From: Deinococcales bacterium
Lineage (GTDB): Bacteria > Deinococcota > Deinococci > Deinococcales > JAAFIG01
Direction of reading: 5' to 3'
DNA length: 17,537 nucleotides
Assembly: GCA_043778225.1 (NCBI GenBank)
Contig: JAYWGM010000078.1
Coordinates: 1-17,537 of the forward strand
The translations under genes were made by a program, and so were the position numbers. Positions 486 to 7,995 of the stretch are shown piece after piece. A model generated the notes under the pieces. That model was given only the letters and a program-made list of their open reading frames with translations, was not told the origin of the DNA and ran no database searches. Every line of letters starts with the position of its first letter. Positions within the stretch are counted from its first letter, which is position 1.

Positions 486-1105
486 AAGGCATCCTCGGCA
501 CAAAAGTCGGTATGACCCAAGTCTGGAAAAATGACAAGGTGATTCCAGTGACAGTCGTGCTGGCGGGACCCTGCCCAGTGGTGCAGCGTAAAACCCCAGC
601 AAACGATGGTTACAGTGCAGTTCAAATTGGTTTTGGTGAATCACCAAAGAAGGCTCTGAGTAAACCAGAACTTGGTCATCTCGAGAAAGCAAAATCTGCC
701 CCAATGCGCCACTTGCGCGAATTCCGTGATTACGCCCCAGAAGCCGACACCATCACTGCCGAGATTTTTACGGCTGGCGAAAAAGTAGATGTGGTTGGAA
801 CTTCTAAAGGTCGCGGTTTTACTGGTGTGATGAAGCGCTGGAATTTCCAAGGTGGTCCTGCTTCGCACGGTGCGAAGAAATGGCATCGCCGTGGTGGTTC
901 GATTGGCGCTCGTAAAACCCCAGGTCGGGTTATTAAAGGTAAAAAAATGCCAGGTCATTATGGTGTCGAACGCACCACCACCCAGAATCTCGAGGTCGTT
1001 GAGGTTCGTGCTTCGGAAAATCTGCTTTTAATTAAAGGCGCAATTCCGGGTGCAAATGGTGGTCTTGTGATGATTAAGCAAGCCAGAAAGGGAGGAGGGA
1101 AATAA
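482..1105 (+). CDS. rplC: 50S ribosomal protein L3
   Basis: [43 protein letters not shown] overlap with rpsJ. Confidence 0.98.
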
Positions 1106-2250
1106 TGCCGAGCATTAGCGTTATCGGAAACAATCCGGGTAGTCTCGAGTTGACTCTCCCGACTGCCAAGACCCATGTCTTGTACGAAGTCGTCAATTGG
1201 CAACTCGCCAAGCGTCGCCGTGGTACTGCCAGTACCCAAACTCGCGCCGAAGTCAGTCGTACAGGCAAGAAGCTCTACAGCCAAAAAGGAACTGGTAATG
1301 CCCGTCACGGCGACCGTTCTGCCCCAATTTATGTTGGTGGTGGTGCAGCTTTTGGTCCTAAGCCACGCAATTACGATTACACCTTGCCTAAAAAAGTGCG
1401 TAAGTTGGGCTTAGCGATGGCGGTCTCGAGCCGTGTGTCCGAAGGTAAAGTTTTAGCCGTAGATGGATTTAGCCTCGATGGCAAAACTAAGGGCTTTTTG
1501 GCATGGGCAAAAGAACACGGTATGGACGGTTCAGAACGTGTGTTCTTAGTCACCGACGACCTCATGGCAATTCGTGCGGCTAAGAATCTGCACTGGGTCA
1601 CGGCGGTTAAGGCGGCTGGCTTAAATTGCTACGATGTTTTACGCCACGAACAATTGGTTGCTGATAAAGCAGTTCTTTTGGCAGTTGGTACAAGCCTGAA
1701 CTTCAAAGCTGAGCAACTTCAGAAAGCCGAAGCTCGAGCAGCAGCCTTAAAAGCTGATAATGAAGCCATCGCCCTAAAAGCCAATCCAATGCCAGTGCCA
1801 CAAGCTCGAGCTTCAAAAGGTCCAAAAGGTACTTTGGCAAAAGCAACCTTGGCGGCAAGTAGCAAGGCTGATGTTGTCGCAAAACCAGCTAAAGCTGCCA
1901 AACCAGCTAAAGTTGCGATAGAAGATGCGGTTGTTGAAGTCGCACCAAAAGCTGCTCAGAAAGTGGCGGCTGGAGACGACTTAAAGCGCATCGAAGGCAT
2001 TGGTCCAAAAATCAATGATGCACTGTTATCGGCTGGAATCAATACCTTTGCCGAATTGGCAGCCGCAACCGAAGACAGCCTTAAAGCTGCCCTCGAGACG
2101 GCTGGTATGCGTTCGCACCCAAGCATGGGTACATGGGCAGAACAATCTGGTTACTTGGCGCGTGGTGATGAAGCAGGATTTGTGACCTTAACTGAGAAAT
2201 TGGTGGCAGGACGCGCCGTGCCTACTGAAGACAAAGAAGGTGACGCATGA
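1105..2250 (+). CDS. rplD: 50S ribosomal protein L4 with long C-terminal extension (Ala/Lys/Pro linker plus HhH domain)
   Basis: RRRGTASTQTRAEV, QKGTGNARHG, GGGAAFGPKPR in the first ~190 aa; ORF runs on to 381 aa and includes DDLKRIEGIGPK; SD GGAGG; stop overlaps rplW start. Confidence 0.96.
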   Translation: MPSISVIGNNPGSLELTLPTAKTHVLYEVVNWQLAKRRRGTASTQTRAEVSRTGKKLYSQKGTGNARHGDRSAPIYVGGGAAFGPKPRNYDYTLPKKVRKLGLAMAVSSRVSEGKVLAVDGFSLDGKTKGFLAWAKEHGMDGSERVFLVTDDLMAIRAAKNLHWVTAVKAAGLNCYDVLRHEQLVADKAVLLAVGTSLNFKAEQLQKAEARAAALKADNEAIALKANPMPVPQARASKGPKGTLAKATLAASSKADVVAKPAKAAKPAKVAIEDAVVEVAPKAAQKVAAGDDLKRIEGIGPKINDALLSAGINTFAELAAATEDSLKAALETAGMRSHPSMGTWAEQSGYLARGDEAGFVTLTEKLVAGRAVPTEDKEGDA

Positions 2251-2538: not shown

Positions 2539-3375
2539 ATGCCAACCAAAGAATATCGTCCGTATACCCCGAGCCGTCGTTACATCACGACCCTCGACTT
2601 TTCTGACCTGACCAAAAAGCGTCCAGAGAAGTCCCTGACTGCGCCACTGCCTAAAACCGGTGGTCGTAGCAACACTGGTCGCACCACCAGCCGTTTTATC
2701 GGTGGTGGACACAAGCGCTTGTACCGCATTATCGATTTTAAGCGCCGCGACAAGGGTGGCGTGCCAGCCAAAGTGGCTGCCATCGAATACGATCCAAATC
2801 GTTCGGCAAACATTGCCCTGCTGCATTACCTCGATGGCGAGAAGCGTTATATCCTTGCGCCAGATGGTGTTGAAGTCGGTAGCCGTATTGTTAGTGGACC
2901 AGAAGCTGAACCTCGAGTCGGCAATGCCATGCCGCTTCGTTTTATCCCAGTTGGTACAGTCGTTCACAGCATCGAATTGGTGCCTGGACGTGGTGCAAAA
3001 ATGGCTCGTAGTGCTGGAACTAGCGCTCAAGTCCAAGGTAAAGAAGGCGACTATGTGGTGCTTCGTTTGCCATCGGGCGAGTTGCGTCGGGTTCACACCG
3101 AGTGTTACGCCACGGTTGGCGTGGTAGGCAATGCCGACCATAAAAACGTGGTTATTGGTAAGGCAGGTCGTCAGCGTTGGATGGGCAACAAGCCACATCA
3201 ACGCGGCAGTTCAATGAACCCTGTTGACCACCCACACGGTGGTGGTGAAGGTCGCGCCCCTACAGGTCGTGTCCCAGTCTCGCCTTGGGGTAAAATTGCA
3301 AAAGGTGGCAAGACACGTAAAAAGCGTAACACCTCGAGTGATTTCATCATTTCTCGTCGTAAGAACTCGAGATAA
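2539..3375 (+). CDS. rplB: 50S ribosomal protein L2
   Basis: [43 protein letters not shown] 2539 just after the rplW stop. Confidence 0.98.
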
Positions 3376-3379
3376 AGGA

Positions 3380-3437
3380 CAGGTCGGGTCGGTGCGCTTG
3401 TGCCGATACCCCCTGATCTGCGCTGGCTATAACCAGC
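3380..3437 (+). promoter_or_regulatory. Structured rplB-rpsS spacer containing a 16S helix-21-like (S8-binding-site-like) hairpin
   Basis: CAGGTC(3380-85)/GATCTG(3415-20) base stem; GGTCG-GTGC-GCTT-GTGC-CGATACC (3387-3410); small hairpin GCTGG/CCAGC (3422-3437) just before the SD AAGGAG. Confidence 0.55.
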
Positions 3438-3450
3438 AAGGAGTTAAATA

Positions 3451-3738
3451 ATGCCAAGGAGTGCCAAAAAAGGTCCATTTGTGGATCTCCACCTGCTCGA
3501 CAAAGTAGATGCTGCCAGCGCTAAAAACGATAAGCGCGTCATCAAAACTTGGTCGCGCCGCAGTACCATTGTTCCTGAAATGATTGGTTTAACGTTGGCT
3601 GTGCATAACGGTAAGCAACACGTCCCAGTTTATGTTTCAGAGAACATGGTCGGTCATAAGCTCGGCGAATTCTCGCCAACTCGTATCTTTAAGGGTCACA
3701 GTGGTGGCAAAGATGCTAAAGCCACAGGTAAGAAATAA
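3451..3738 (+). CDS. rpsS: 30S ribosomal protein S19
   Basis: [31 protein letters not shown]. Confidence 0.98.
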
Positions 3739-4112
3739 TGGAAGCCTTCGCTTTAGCTAAATTTGTCCGTATCACCCCACGCAAAATGCGTTTGGTGATT
3801 GACCTGATTCGTGGCAAAACCGTCAAGGATGCAGAAGACCTCTTGAAATTTATTCCAAAGGGTGCAACCACACCAATTGCTAAAGTCTTAAAGAGCGCCA
3901 AAGCCAACGCTACCAACAACTTCGATATGCTCGAGGATCAGTTGTACATCAAGAGTGCTTTTGTCAACGAAGGTCCGACCCTGAAACGGATTATTCCTCG
4001 GGCTCGTGGTCGTGGTGATGGTTTATTAAAACGCACCAGTCATGTGACGATTATTCTCGAGGAAATGCCAGAAGGTAAAACCCGAAACAGCGGTAAAGGT
4101 GGGAAGCGATAA
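3738..4112 (+). CDS. rplV: 50S ribosomal protein L22
   Basis: VRITPRKMRLVIDLIRGK, VNEGPTLKR, PRARGR, KRTSHVTI. Confidence 0.98.
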   Translation: MEAFALAKFVRITPRKMRLVIDLIRGKTVKDAEDLLKFIPKGATTPIAKVLKSAKANATNNFDMLEDQLYIKSAFVNEGPTLKRIIPRARGRGDGLLKRTSHVTIILEEMPEGKTRNSGKGGKR

Positions 4113-4897
4113 TGGGTAATAAAATCAATCCACTCGGTCTACGCATCGGGATTAACAAAGACCACTTGTCCAAATGGTTTGCGACCAAAAAAGATTACGC
4201 CAAATTGATTGTCGAAGACAGCAAAATCCGTAAGATGGTCAATAAAGAATTGAACAATGCTGGTGTGGCAACAATCAACATTGAACGGGCGGCTCATCAA
4301 GTCAATGTCACCGTCAAGGCTGCCAAGCCCGGTGTTGTTATTGGTAAGGATGGCTCAAATATCAAGAAATTGCGCGATACATTAACTGCCGTAGTTGGTC
4401 ATACCAGCACTGTGGCTGTCAATGTCGAAGAAGTCGGCAACCCAAACACCAGCGCTCCGTTAATCGCGCAACGCATTGCCGAACAAATCGAACGCCGTTT
4501 TGCTTACAAGCGTGCCATGCAGCAAGCGATTCAAAAAGTGATGGAATCTGGTGCAAAGGGCTGTAAAATCGTGGTTTCGGGTCGTCTTGGTGGCGCAGAG
4601 CAAGGTCGCAAAGAAACCCGCATGGAAGGTCGCGTACCACTTCATACCCTGCGTGCCGACATTGATTATGGTTTTGCCGAAGCCTTAACCACCTATGGCA
4701 AGCTCGGTATCAAAGTGATTGTCTTTAATGGCGAAGTGATTGGTAAGCAAGATGGCACACGCCTCGCCCCACGCCCAATGGCTCGAGGCGGCGCAGATGG
4801 TGCAAAAAGCGGCGGCGATGACCGCCGTGGTGGCGCTGGTGCAAACCGCACCCGTCCGGGCGCTCGCGCTCGTCGTCCAGAGAAGGGAGGCGCGTAA
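4112..4897 (+). CDS. rpsC: 30S ribosomal protein S3
   Basis: [35 protein letters not shown]; Gly/Arg-rich C-terminal tail. Confidence 0.98.
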
Positions 4898-5322
4898 TGT
4901 TACTTCCAAAACGCATGAAGTTCCGTAAGCAAATGAAGGGTCGTATGCGCGGCTCAACCAAAGGCGGCGATTACATCGCCTTCGGAGATTTTGGTCTGGT
5001 GGCACTAGAAGCCGCTTGGATTCGTTCCAACCACATCGAAGCCTGCCGTATCAGCATGAGTCGCTATTTTCGCCGTGGTGGTAAAATCTATATTCGTATC
5101 TTCCCAGATAAGCCAATCACCAAAAAGCCTGCCGAAACCCGCATGGGTAGCGGTAAAGGCGCGGTCGAATACTGGGTGGCTGTGGTCAAACCGGGTCGTG
5201 TGATGTTTGAAGTCGAAGGCGTGACCGAAGAACAAGCCCGCGAAGCCTTTCGTTTAGCTGGACACAAACTCCCAATTAAAACGAAGTTTGTCACAAGGGA
5301 GGTCTACGATGAAGCGCAATGA
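4897..5322 (+). CDS. rplP: 50S ribosomal protein L16
   Basis: [42 protein letters not shown]. Confidence 0.98.
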
Positions 5323-5533
5323 GTCCCTAAAAGCCTTCCGCGAGATGAACGTCGTTAATCTCGATAAAGAAGTTGCAACTCGTAAAGAAGAACTGATGAA
5401 ACTCCGCTTCCAAAAAGTGGTCAGTACCGTCCAGAATACCTCGAGACTAAGTCTTCTTCGCAAAGAAATCGCGCAACTCTTGACCATCGCTACCGAAAAA
5501 CGCGGCGAAGGTCTTGCAAAGAAGGTGAAGTAA
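5309..5533 (+). CDS. rpmC: 50S ribosomal protein L29
   Basis: [10 protein letters not shown]...[10 protein letters not shown]; position between rplP and rpsQ; SD GGGAGG before ATG 5309. Confidence 0.93.
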
Positions 5534-5782
5534 ATGGCGGTTAAAACATTTATTGGTACAGTGGTGTCCGACAAAGCCAACAAGACCATTTCGGTCAAGG
5601 TCGAACGCAAGTTCACCCATCCCTTGTATGGCAAAGTGGTGACCCGCTCGAAGAAATATGCGACACACGATGAAAACAACGAATACAAAGCAGGCGACAT
5701 CGTTGAAATCATTGCTGTGCGCCCAATCAGCAAGACCAAAACGTGGAAAGTCAATCGTTTGGTCGAGTCGAAAAAGGACTAG
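5534..5782 (+). CDS. rpsQ: 30S ribosomal protein S17
   Basis: [34 protein letters not shown]. Confidence 0.98.
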
Positions 5783-5784
5783 TC

Positions 5785-6168
5785 ATGATTCAATCCTTTA
5801 CAGAATTAGATGTTGCCGACAATACTGGCGCAAAGAAAGTAATGTGCTTTCGCGTCATGGGTGGATTGTCTCGCGGTAGCGGCAACCAAAAGTACGCTGG
5901 CGTAGGCGATGTCATTATTGCCAGCGTTAAAGAATGCGCTCCTCGCGGTACGGTTAAAAAAGGTGATGTTGTCAAATGCGTGGTCGTCCGAACCAGCAAG
6001 GTCGTTAAACGCGCCGATGGCAGTGCCATTCGCTTTGACCGCAATGCTGCCGTGATTATCAACAAAGAAGGCGAACCTCGAGGTACACGTGTTTTCGGAC
6101 CGATTGCTCGAGAACTTCGTGACCGTAAGTTCATGAAGATTGTTTCGCTCGCTCCGGAGGTGTTGTAA
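5785..6168 (+). CDS. rplN: 50S ribosomal protein L14
   Basis: [42 protein letters not shown]; short Gly-rich loop insertion. Confidence 0.98.
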
Positions 6169-6482
6169 TGCACGTTAAGAGTGGCGACACCGTTAAAGTG
6201 CTGCGCGGCAAAGACCGTGGCACAATTGCAAAAGTCTTAAAAGTTTTGCCAAAAGAAGAGACTGTCTTGGTTGAAGGTGTCAATATCGTCACCAAAGCAG
6301 TTAAACCATCCGAAACCAACCGCACTGGTGGTTTCACCAAGTTTGAATCGCCAATCCATGCTTCTAAAGTCATGGTTGTGGATTCAGAAGGTAAAGCCAC
6401 CCGCATCGGTATGAAAGAAATCAACGGTAAGAAGGTGCGCGTCTCCAAGAAGAGCGGCGTAACCATCGAAGAGAGTAGGTGA
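6168..6482 (+). CDS. rplX: 50S ribosomal protein L24
   Basis: [17 protein letters not shown] (KOW), [16 protein letters not shown]. Confidence 0.97.
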
Positions 6483-6487
6483 GTTAT

Positions 6488-7033
6488 ATGGCAATGGAGC
6501 GATTAAAAATCACCTACCAAACGACAGTCCGCGAGGACATGATGAAGCGCTTTGGTTACACCAGCCCAATGGCAGTCCCAGCCCTTGTCAAAGTCGTGGT
6601 CAATCAAGGCATCGGTGAAGCCAAGGACGACAGCAAATTGCTCGAGAAAGCCCAAAAAGACATGGCAACAATCACGCTGCAAAAGCCAATTGTCACCAAG
6701 TCCAAGAAAAGCGTCTCGAACTTTAAGCTCCGTGCTGGTCAAAGCGTTGGTCTTAAAGTCACCTTGCGTGGCGAAAAAATGTACACCTTCCTCGAGAAAC
6801 TCTTGAATGTCGCCTTACCGCGTATTCGTGATTTCCGTGGAGTCAACCCAAACAGCTTTGATGGTCGTGGTAACTACAACTTGGGTATCAAAGAACAAAT
6901 GGTTTTCCCAGAAATTACCTACGAAATGGTAGATGCAACCCGTGGATTTGACATCACGGTCGTGACCACTGCCAAGAATGATGAAGAAGGTCGGGCGTTA
7001 CTCGAGGGACTCGGATTCCCATTTAAGAAATAA
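6488..7033 (+). CDS. rplE: 50S ribosomal protein L5
   Basis: [40 protein letters not shown]; start at ATG 6488 (6494 is an alternative). Confidence 0.97.
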
Positions 7034-7039
7034 ATTCTT

Positions 7040-7065
7040 GTAGGGCGAGGCACACCTCGCCCTAC
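7040..7065. repeat. GTAG-type REP-like palindrome
   Basis: Perfect 11-bp inverted repeat GTAGGGCGAGG-CACA-CCTCGCCCTAC starting with GTAG on both strands; no U-tract. Confidence 0.6.
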
Positions 7066-7077
7066 GATAGGAGACCT

Positions 7078-7347
7078 ATGGCAATTCAATCAAAGAAAGC
7101 TCGTCAAAAACAACGCGAAGTGCTGGTTAAGAAATTCGCCGCCAAACGTGCCGCCATGAAAGCTGCTGGCGATTATGTTGGTCTGCAAAGCATTCCACGT
7201 AATGCCAGCCCAGTTCGTCTTCGCAATCGCTGCTCGGAAACTGGTCGTCCACGTGGTTACGTTGGCTTTTTTGGTCTGAGCCGTATTGTGCTGCGCGAAA
7301 AAGCCCACGCTGGCGAATTGCCCGGCGTGACCAAATCCAGCCGCTAA
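7078..7347 (+). CDS. rpsN: 30S ribosomal protein S14, 89-aa zinc-free (C-) type
   Basis: [45 protein letters not shown]; only one Cys; SD AGGAG. Confidence 0.96.
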
Positions 7348-7596
7348 CGTCATCGAAACGTGATAAAGGGTCAAAAGCCTTTTTTCTGCAAGCTAATTTG
7401 CTGTACGCTCCACTGCTTGGGTCAAACCAAGTTTTATTTAACTTGAGAAGTTCGTGCTAGGGGTTCAAGCCTAGTAGCAGAGTCTTGAGTCGGTGCGGGG
7501 ATGGTCGAATGAGTTCATCCGATACCACCCGCGAAGCTAGAAAACGGTTTAAGCTCGGACAACGGGTCGAAAAACCGATTAACAGGAGAAGCAAAA
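7348..7596 (+). promoter_or_regulatory. 249-nt structured leader upstream of rpsH with a 16S helix-21-like hairpin
   Basis: Several hairpins by inspection; GCGGG(7495-99)/CCCGC(7528-32) encloses GGTCG-AATG-AGTT-CATC-CGATACC (7503-7526); SD AGGAG before rpsH. Confidence 0.6.
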
Positions 7597-7995
7597 ATGC
7601 TTTCAGATCCAATTGCAGATATGCTCACCCGCATCCGAAACGCGGTGCGTGGGTACAAGGAAACGGTAGATATTCCCGCTTCTAAGTTCAAAGAGCGGAT
7701 TGCCCATATCCTCGAAAAAGAGGGTTACGTTAAAGGTGTAGAGCGTGTCAAACTCGAGACTGGTTTTGAAATAATTCGTGTAGGCTTAAAATACGGCGCA
7801 AAACGCGAACCCGTCATTAAAAGTATTACTCGCATTAGCCGTCCCGGTCGTCGGGCTTACGTGACTTCGGATAATCTGCCAAAGATTCACGCAGGTTTAG
7901 GCATGAGCATTGTCAGCACCTCCAAGGGACTGATGGTTGACCGCGATGCACGCAAAAGTGGCATCGGTGGCGAAGTAATCTGCGAGGTGTGGTAA
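7597..7995 (+). CDS. rpsH: 30S ribosomal protein S8
   Basis: [42 protein letters not shown]. Confidence 0.98.

Follow-up and report, generated by a model that had tools for sequence, protein, structure and literature searches.

The window analysed here, a stretch of 17,537 nucleotides (nt) from a Deinococcales bacterium (GenBank assembly GCA_043778225.1, contig JAYWGM010000078.1), carries the S10-spc run of ribosomal protein genes, and two of its spacers each contain a short RNA hairpin resembling the site on helix 21 of 16S ribosomal RNA (rRNA) that is bound by ribosomal protein S8. All window features given below lie on the + strand. NCBIfam assigns the gene order S10, L3, L4, L23, L2 / S19, L22 ... 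L5, S14 / S8, L6, in which the slashes mark the hairpin-bearing spacers. By open reading frame coordinates, these spacers are 75 and 249 nt long and are the largest non-coding gaps from rpsJ to rpmD; no other gap is longer than 44 nt, and most of the genes have overlaps of 1-7 nt. The first spacer separates rplB (L2; 2500..3375; TIGR01171, 427.9 bits), whose family match begins at residue 17 and whose start codon may be later than annotated, from rpsS (S19; 3451..3738, ATG at 3451; TIGR01050, 145.7 bits), which is followed by the tightly packed rplV, rpsC, rplP, rpmC, rpsQ, rplN, rplX, and rplE. The second separates rpsN (S14, 89 amino acids; 7078..7347; NF006477, 93.1 bits) from rpsH (S8; 7597..7995, ATG at 7597; NF001109, 171.3 bits), downstream of which the overlapping genes rplF, rplR, rpsE, and rpmD are found.

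Copy 1 of the hairpin lies in the rplB-rpsS spacer at positions 3387-3410 (GGTCGGTGCGCTTGTGCCGATACC) and copy 2 in the rpsN-rpsH spacer at 7503-7526 (GGTCGAATGAGTTCATCCGATACC). They have a common architecture, GGUCG-4 base pairs (bp)-tetraloop-4 bp-CGAUACC. An earlier note, made from the letters of the window, had described them as two spacer hairpins of the same length with identical flanks and differing but paired inner stems, and this description holds in both position and sequence. In particular, the inner stem of copy 1 consists of G-C, U-G, G-U, and C-G pairs, and that of copy 2 of A.C, A-U, U-A, and G-C. The pattern GGTCGN{8,16}CGATACC matches the window twice, against 0.01 matches expected, and none of 200 shuffled sequences gives two matches.

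The two leaders follow one plan: an outer helix, the S8-like loop, a 5-bp stem with its tetraloop, a short linker, another small hairpin, the Shine-Dalgarno sequence, and the AUG. Leader 1 contains a stem-loop at 3377..3419, which scores 40 bits with R1, a covariance model of the element, and is folded by RNAalifold with a 2-nt bulge. In the RNAalifold structure it comprises the outer helix P1 (3377-3382 with 3413-3419) and the S8-like internal loop with hairpin P2 (3386-3411), and its tetraloop reads GCUU (3396-3399). A further hairpin, P3 (GCUGG-CUAUAA-CCAGC, 3422..3437), supported by covariation in rpsS leaders, adjoins the rpsS Shine-Dalgarno sequence AAGGAG (3438..3443), of which GGAG is invariant in the rpsS-leader alignment. 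The leader 2 stem-loop spans 7495..7532 (R1 37.5 bits) and is based on folding and on relatives. Its outer helix, GCGGG (7495-7499) with CCCGC (7528-7532), is invariant in genus g1 and hence uninformative there; G7500 and A7501 are unpaired in the fold, the S8-like loop and its hairpin occupy 7502-7527, and the tetraloop is AGUU (7512-7515). A second hairpin, CGGU...ACCG (7545..7577), is predicted between this element and the rpsH Shine-Dalgarno sequence AGGAG (7584..7588; AGGAGA is invariant in 8/8 aligned leaders); its covariation is weak, with 1 two-sided pair change and several broken cells.

The likeness of the hairpins to the S8 site extends to individual bases. The 16S rRNA was not found in the window's own assembly, which is 89% complete, and the 16S rRNA of relatives was used. 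In a complete genome of the same family, helix 21 reads AAGUCC...GGAUACU, and its GUC/GAUAC core is identical to that of the hairpins; this is the comparison with the lineage's own helix 21 that the earlier note had proposed. The E. coli site quoted there was also right: in the 1542-nt E. coli 16S rRNA, the region is U594 A A G597 U C A600 ... U638 G639 A U A C643 U G645, within TTAAGTCAGATG...GCATCTGATACTGG. The E. coli record nearest to the 16S rRNA of the relatives (NZ_CP091836.1, L196) has an atypical helix-21 region, ...GCATTTGAAACTGG..., unlike that of usual E. coli (L197). According to the accessible portions of PMC4176348, the signature of S8 sites includes the triple (G597-C643).U641 and the triple A595.(A596-U644), which becomes G595.(C596-G644) in Thermus, the 596-644 pair being A-U in E. 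coli and C-G in Thermus. The same portions describe A642 as the only conserved base-specific S8 contact, on which the S-T-S tripeptide of S8 stacks, and write position 641 as N641.

The equivalents of these bases were read from the window and from an alignment (A1) of 26 distinct 30-nt hairpins, 18 from rpsH leaders and 8 from rpsS leaders, with identical rows merged; these hairpins can be aligned unambiguously. In copy 1, G3388, U3389, and C3390 correspond to G597, U598, and C599, and G3404, A3405, U3406, A3407, and C3408 correspond to G639 to C643, with U3406-A3407 as the bulge and A3407 as the A642 equivalent. In copy 2, G7504, U7505, and C7506 stand opposite G7521, A7522, U7523, A7524, and C7525; the bulge is U7523-A7524, and A7524 is the A642 equivalent. 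The G597-C643 equivalent (columns 5-26; G3388-C3408 and G7504-C7525 in the window) is GC in 26/26 rows, the U598/A640 equivalent (columns 6-23) is UA in all 26, and the C599-G639 equivalent (columns 7-22) is CG in all 26. At the N641-A642 bulge, column 25 is A in 26/26, and column 24 is U or G, with A in further relatives; this 641 equivalent is the only variable core base among the relatives. The hairpins thus match helix 21 at G597-C643, U598/A640, C599-G639, and the bulged N641-A642, and both copies reproduce GUC/GAUAC with its 2-nt asymmetry, as had been claimed: the columns are invariant, and the bulge is recovered by RNAalifold. Three differences stand against this likeness: the 596-644 equivalent (columns 4-27), A-U in rRNA, is a Watson-Crick GC pair in all 26 hairpins; rRNA has an unpaired base at 595 and the hairpins have none; and the distal helix of rRNA is replaced in the hairpins by 5 bp and a tetraloop. 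On the protein side, the S8 encoded in the window contains VSTSKG, i.e., an intact S-T-S tripeptide, and its nearest solved relative is the 138-amino-acid S8 of 30S structures (1i94_H; E value 2.2e-45).

The RNA element is genuine, it is conserved, and it covaries strongly. Scored against the structure ..((((((((((....)))))))..))).., A1 has 95.7% of its cells in standard pairs vs 72.5% in shuffles (0/500 reach this value), and its covariation score is 0.578 vs 0.139 in shuffles and at most 0.136 in controls with slid partners. Two-sided changes occur in 6/10 pairs, and the other four pairs form the invariant core; the invariant columns are G4, G5, U6, C7, G22, A23, A25, C26, and C27. The tetraloop (columns 13-16) reads NNUU in at least 90% of copies, across four families.

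The rpsH site is order-wide. S8 was located in 29/31 related genomes, and the GUC-stem-tetraloop-stem-GAUAC hairpin precedes rpsH at every locus of the window's family (f1; genera g1, g2, g3, and g5) that reaches the spacer, at three loci of family f2, and at one of family f5. Three f4 loci and two g9 loci carry GGUCG(A/G)GGGG-GUU-CCCUCGAGACC, which folds alike, with G as the first base of the bulge. Inner-stem sequences vary freely yet pair (AAUG/CAUC, GACG/CGCC, CUCG/CGGG, GCGA/UCGC, GUGU/GCAC). In a survey of 151 genomes drawn from the order (threshold E<=0.01), R1 gave 111 matches in 91 genomes: 15/18 in f1, 16/37 in f2, 2/36 in f3, 22/23 in f4, and 35/36 in f5. Most matches (86/111) are on the rpsH strand, 11-125 nt upstream of that gene, and 62 of these come from genomes that gave no row to R1. 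A further 12 lie in the rplB-rpsS spacer of f1, and one lies on a second contig (C264) of genome G007, with a score equal to that of the rpsH site of G007. The remaining 12 are weak (<=30.9 bits) and lie elsewhere; six of these 12 were fetched, and all six fall within long open frames. Of the conservation and covariation of GUC/GAUAC in relatives, which the earlier note had named as a check, conservation is present in A1, in the rpsS leaders (see below), and in the survey, and covariation in A1 and the rpsS leaders.

The families f2 and f3, where R1 matched few genomes, carry the hairpin in other forms as well. Among 20 f2 genomes without an R1 match at rpsH, 14 have a GUC...GA[A/U]AC hairpin found by regular expression (12 GAAAC, 2 GAUAC), two have a hairpin with one U.C mismatch as judged by eye, two have a degenerate GGCC...GG[G/U]ACC, and two have no such hairpin before rpsH. 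In f3, the core stands before rpsH in the opposite orientation in 23/23 genomes examined. This element, [C/U]GGAUACGAAC-variable hairpin-(G)U[G/C]AUCGUC[C/U][G/A], begins 114-244 nt upstream of rpsH, and its outer pair covaries as C...G or U...A. A further conserved internal loop, GAAC/GUGAUC, was seen beside the inverted core of f3 (L149-L168, L025, L027, L028). Within f1, the outer helix of the rpsH hairpin reads GGAUACG...CGUCC in g5 (L018; 1037-1066 and flanks) and g2 (L017 and L023), and a GGAAACG variant in g3 (L024). In these three genera, the outer helix amounts to a second, inverted GUC/GAUAC core that has one G-C pair in common with the inner core, giving a pseudo-symmetric double motif. 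The distance to the gene also varies. The outer helix of f2 stops 3-4 nt short of the Shine-Dalgarno sequence GGAGG; in f4 and f5, mostly 25-36 nt separate the end of the element from the AUG, as against 112-125 nt in about ten f5 genomes. The rpsN-rpsH spacer ranges from 228 to 372 nt within the genus.

The rpsS twin is limited to three genera of one uncultured family. S19 was found in 26/31 related genomes. Of the 14 f1 loci, 12 (g1, g3, g5) have a rplB-rpsS spacer of 74-88 nt that carries GGGUCG-4bp-NNUU-4bp-CGAUACCC; both g2 loci have a different, longer spacer without the asymmetric loop, and in four other families 0/12 loci have the rpsS hairpin, the spacers there being -1 to 13 nt long. 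From 10 distinct rpsS spacers, RNAalifold predicts unaided the outer helix, the 2-nt-bulged core, and the stem of 4 bp; 7 of 16 pairs show compensatory (two-sided) changes, and helices 1 and 2 are 100% paired in these 10 sequences. When the hairpin adjoining the Shine-Dalgarno sequence is included, 95.7% of cells are paired vs 81.3% in shuffles (0/500), and covariation is 0.462 vs 0.168. In P3, two-sided changes occur at pair 52-78 (UA:4, CG:3) and pair 53-64 (GC:6, AU:4); three g5 rows are out of P3 register and have a longer hairpin of their own instead. As the spacer hairpin is present at 12/14 f1 loci against 0/12 elsewhere and has its own covariation, the rpsS element is a family-level innovation and not a peculiarity of this genome. 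Two-site control, as proposed from the window, thus stands in part: two sites exist, but only in three genera of the window's family, and it is the rpsH site that is order-wide.

The assembly (4.03 Mb, 107 contigs) was searched for further copies. R1 detects no site beyond the two, which score 40 and 37.5 bits; its next best match has 19.6 bits (E 0.145). Both sites are rows of the model, so their own scores are built in, and what is informative is that no third one came up. A strict 12-base flank pattern with a gap of 6-20 nt has 15 matches genome-wide vs 10 in a reversed control; beyond the two sites, the hairpin is not formed at these matches, and the most hairpin-like (on contigs C72 and C15) lie in open reading frames. 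A script for GUC-hairpin-GAUAC with a closing pair gave 14 candidates vs 7 in the reversed genome, and the other 12 of these 14 all overlap stop-to-stop frames of at least 120 amino acids, the C15 site included. One of these 12, a perfect 7-bp hairpin with helix-21-like flanks, is on the minus strand of contig C47 (10969-10998; AGUCCUUCCCC-AUGUUA-GGGGAAGGAUACU); it lies antisense between transporter-like genes, ahead of where the next gene probably starts, and was judged to be a chance match. Cores in inverted orientation are no commoner in the window than chance predicts (6 observed vs 6.2 expected). The element does not behave as a dispersed intergenic repeat, with two copies in 4.03 Mb and 1-2 per genome in relatives, nearly always at rpsH or rpsS. 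A multi-copy, generic nature of the motif, which would have spoken against control by S8, was not borne out by the R1, pattern, or script searches.

The transcript context of the spacers was also considered. A consensus scan places a terminator-like hairpin with a U-run at 7415..7440 in the 249-nt rpsN-rpsH spacer, and terminator-like sites in the region are no commoner than in shuffles (6 found vs 6.1 expected). In the same spacer (7348-7480), the rpsN stop is directly followed by an A/U-rich hairpin with a U-run, and a further hairpin lies at about 7454-7478. A promoter scan detected no sigma-70-like site on the + strand of either spacer; the upstream terminator-like hairpins would be compatible with a transcript start of its own for rpsH. 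In four freshwater metatranscriptome runs, contigs of relatives with roughly 85-95% identity cover both leaders: one (X18 record 9) spans rplB, the spacer, and rpsS, and another (X19 record 23) spans rpsN to rpsH with 117 differing letters in the variable part. These contigs speak neither for nor against co-transcription because transcript ends are invisible in them and carry-over of DNA is possible.

The hairpins are probably messenger RNA (mRNA) mimics of the S8 docking site in helix 21, acting as candidate S8 feedback operators, and a probability of about 0.7 is assigned to this reading. The sequences, the conserved covarying fold, the exclusive placement, the identity with the helix 21 core, and the intact RNA-binding tripeptide of S8 are observed; binding by S8, the block of initiation, and its spread through coupling belong to the inferred part of the model. 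In each hairpin, a continuous helix displays the motif, which comprises G-C, U/A, and C-G pairs and a bulge of two bases ending in the invariant A, and which a 5-bp stem and a tetraloop close off. When S8 output exceeds that of new 16S rRNA, free S8 would occupy the weaker mRNA sites, and the bound helix, together with the small hairpin before the Shine-Dalgarno sequence, would impede loading of the 30S subunit on rpsS and rpsH. Repression would then spread by translational coupling from rpsS to rplE/rpsN and from rpsH to rpmD. A block of 30S loading is proposed because the element comes close to the Shine-Dalgarno sequence or the AUG in f2, f4, and f5. Neither hairpin of the window is followed by a U-run; attenuation is therefore unlikely. 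The suggestion of the earlier note that S8 controls the cluster has been supported by every computational check it proposed, and binding and repression by S8 are still predictions.

A bolder version of this scheme may be entertained, albeit tentatively and at somewhat less than even odds. S8 might be the master repressor of most of the S10-spc run via two operators, an ancient one before rpsH and a new one inserted within the S10 operon as the 75-nt rplB-rpsS spacer, so that the genes from rpsS to rpsN would be under the control of S8 and not of L4. The double cores GGAUACG-GUCG...CGAUAC-CGUCC might then represent either two S8 molecules on a pseudo-symmetric RNA or an orientation flip caught midway.

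Several observations weigh against the feedback operators. With respect to binding, an unpaired equivalent of position 595 is absent, and the triple A595.(A596-U644) is without a counterpart because columns 3 and 28 form a covarying Watson-Crick pair (GC:8, UA:8, CG:7, UG:1, other:2); the missing bulge would be expected to weaken binding relative to rRNA, which may be just what a feedback operator needs. Moreover, G or A at the 641 equivalent may not be isosteric with the (G-C).U triple that the accessible portions of PMC4176348 describe as favoured in SELEX, and the NNUU loop, for which the S8 model has no explanation, could be a sign of some other partner. With respect to the RNA itself, the A1 hairpins were picked by a filter of at least 3/4 pairs, which favours pairing, and one bulged copy (L016) was dropped; the minimum free energy folding z-scores of the window leaders are ordinary (-1.31 for leader 1 and -1.78 for leader 2). 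With respect to repression, about 40 nt separate the hairpin end at 3410 from the start codon at 3451 in this genome, and 70 nt the one at 7526 from that at 7597, and no alternative pairing that sequesters the Shine-Dalgarno sequence was found in its leaders. The route from binding to repression is inferred, and the case is weakest for the long leaders of this genome.

Some of these observations would also fit conserved, structured spacers in which S8 plays no role, such as an RNase processing or stability element, a pause site, or a site for an NNUU-binding protein, with a coincidental likeness to helix 21. This explanation is unlikely. The positions that are invariant are exactly the bases of the asymmetric loop of the S8 site, and not those of the helix or the terminal loop; the 86 rpsH-upstream matches of the order sample precede the gene of S8 itself; and in f3 the core is kept through an inversion of orientation in 23/23 genomes. 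Because the core survives this inversion, the internal loop appears to be the selected feature. In favour of the S8-independent explanation are the conserved UU of the loop, which the S8 model does not need, the absent 595 bulge, the distance of the hairpins from the start codons in this genome, and the terminator-like hairpins elsewhere in the 249-nt spacer, which hint at events at the level of the transcript. The UU is nevertheless dispensable, because f2 variants carry UACG or CACG loops in place of NNUU.

It is also possible, though similarly improbable, that S8 does bind and that the outcome is something other than translational feedback, for example, protection of the mRNA from decay, control of read-through into rpsH, or a holding site for S8. 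The large distance to the ribosome-binding site in this genome, the terminator-like hairpins upstream in the rpsN-rpsH spacer, and the variation of that spacer between 228 and 372 nt within the genus are compatible with such outcomes, but in compact forms from sister families the helix adjoins the Shine-Dalgarno sequence (f2) or stops 30-36 nt short of the AUG, a layout typical of translational operators, and no U-run comes after either window hairpin. Furthermore, the E. coli spc precedent is translational, as far as the accessible portions of PMC3616713 and PMC10931766 describe it. Finally, chance resemblance or copying of a dispersed genomic repeat, for which the 15 flank-pattern matches against 10 in the reversed control might be cited, is refuted by the enrichment in the window, by the lack of a third R1 site in a genome whose remaining pattern matches have no hairpin or lie inside open reading frames, and by compensatory changes and conservation over five families.

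The proposed S8 operators would work like the spc operator of E. coli and other Gammaproteobacteria (S8-interacting RNA) but are not members of that RNA family. In both cases, an mRNA copy of the helix 21 S8 site lies within the S10-spc run, ahead of coupled, packed downstream genes, and the core sets G-U-C opposite G-A-N-A-C. Read from the genome with positions taken from accessible portions of PMC4176348 and PMC3616713, the E. coli operator places +6 GAAACU +11 with +80 AAGUC +84. An A at position 641 and the GANAC-first order found in relatives have experimental precedent, because this validated operator reads GAAAC and has its GANAC strand 5' of GUC. The E. coli operator overlaps the rplE start codon, as Fu et al. 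(2013) place the known S8 RNA at the start of rplE (PMC3616713, accessible portions), whereas the hairpins described here occupy dedicated spacers before rpsS and rpsH; neither R1 nor the pattern matches at the rplE of the window (start 6479). The E. coli operator is about 80 nt long, has the GANAC strand first, and keeps the A+80 triple, whereas the window hairpins are 24 nt long, have the GUC strand first, and are without a 595-like bulge. E. coli has one S8 site and the window has two. On the E. coli rplX-rplE locus, R1 reaches at most 6.8 bits, with no homology to the E. coli element.

The hairpins also resemble, in principle, the ribosomal protein leaders collected in Rfam 15 (L10, L13, L19, L20, L21, S15, and S4), in which a ribosomal protein binds a structured part of the mRNA of its own operon. 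None of the Rfam 15 families matches the window at gathering score, and at E<=10 the region 3300-7700 yields one unrelated match only (E 5.9). A full-text literature search, which covered few subscription journals and main texts rather than supplements, found no paper on an rpsH leader. The terms rpsH, uS8, and Deinococc do not occur in the text of PMC7247131, which reports 20 leader candidates (Eckert and Weinberg 2020). By its title, PMC3616713 confines most such E. coli regulators to Gammaproteobacteria, and a 2024 review (PMC10931766), in its accessible portions, calls spc regulation outside E. coli-like bacteria unknown and states that phylogenetic studies "have not been advanced".

An outside control comprised 80 S8 loci from distant phyla, with none from close relatives. 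R1 reached at most 14.9 bits on these loci, and a strict regular expression matched 0/80. A loose one matched 5/80, namely, four Actinomycetota loci and one further case. The Actinomycetota loci (L075, L083, L113, L117) have GGUC...GGA[A/G]ACC hairpins about 60-100 nt upstream of rpsH, with 11.8 bits by R1 for L113. Three Oscillospiraceae loci (L088, L091, L100) have in common, by eye, AAAGGCC...GGAACCUC...CGGUAACUCU about 60-110 nt upstream of rpsH, which is not GUC...GAUAC. As core-like hairpins precede rpsH in other phyla, the idea of an S8 operator may be widespread and unrecorded.

Other peculiarities of the locus were noticed in passing. The L4 protein (window 1105-2250) has 381 amino acids, of which residues 21-191 are spanned by the bacterial L4 family, followed by a long C-terminal extension. 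This extension has matches to low-complexity segments of other models and no more than a partial one to the L4 'sunset domain variant' (131 bits, cut-off 385). The hexamer CTCGAG occurs at the end of rplB in the window (3367-3372) and also inside S8-like hairpins of relatives, as GUCGCUCGAGUUCGGGC in L018 (g5) and as CCCUCGAGACC in L029-L031, L034, and L035 (f4, g9).

Feedback by S8 on the spc operon is a textbook case, documented only for E. coli-like bacteria, and the candidate operator described here extends the question to the Deinococcus-Thermus group. The hairpins are most likely undescribed S8 feedback switches in that group. The candidate operator is compact and sharply defined, consisting of 24 nt and an outer helix, and RNA family databases would gain a new entry with it. 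Most of the genomes sampled from the order have it, including genera with small, thermophile-sized genomes, whose S8 comes nearest to the Thermus protein known from solved 30S structures; since these genera carry the element and their S8 is so close to the Thermus protein, the question can be tested directly with existing proteins and ribosome structures. The rpsS twin would provide a case of an operator that was copied or re-invented at a second place in a gene run, and the inverted elements a case in which the same protein-binding loop is used in either orientation, which would be useful for understanding the origins of RNA regulators.

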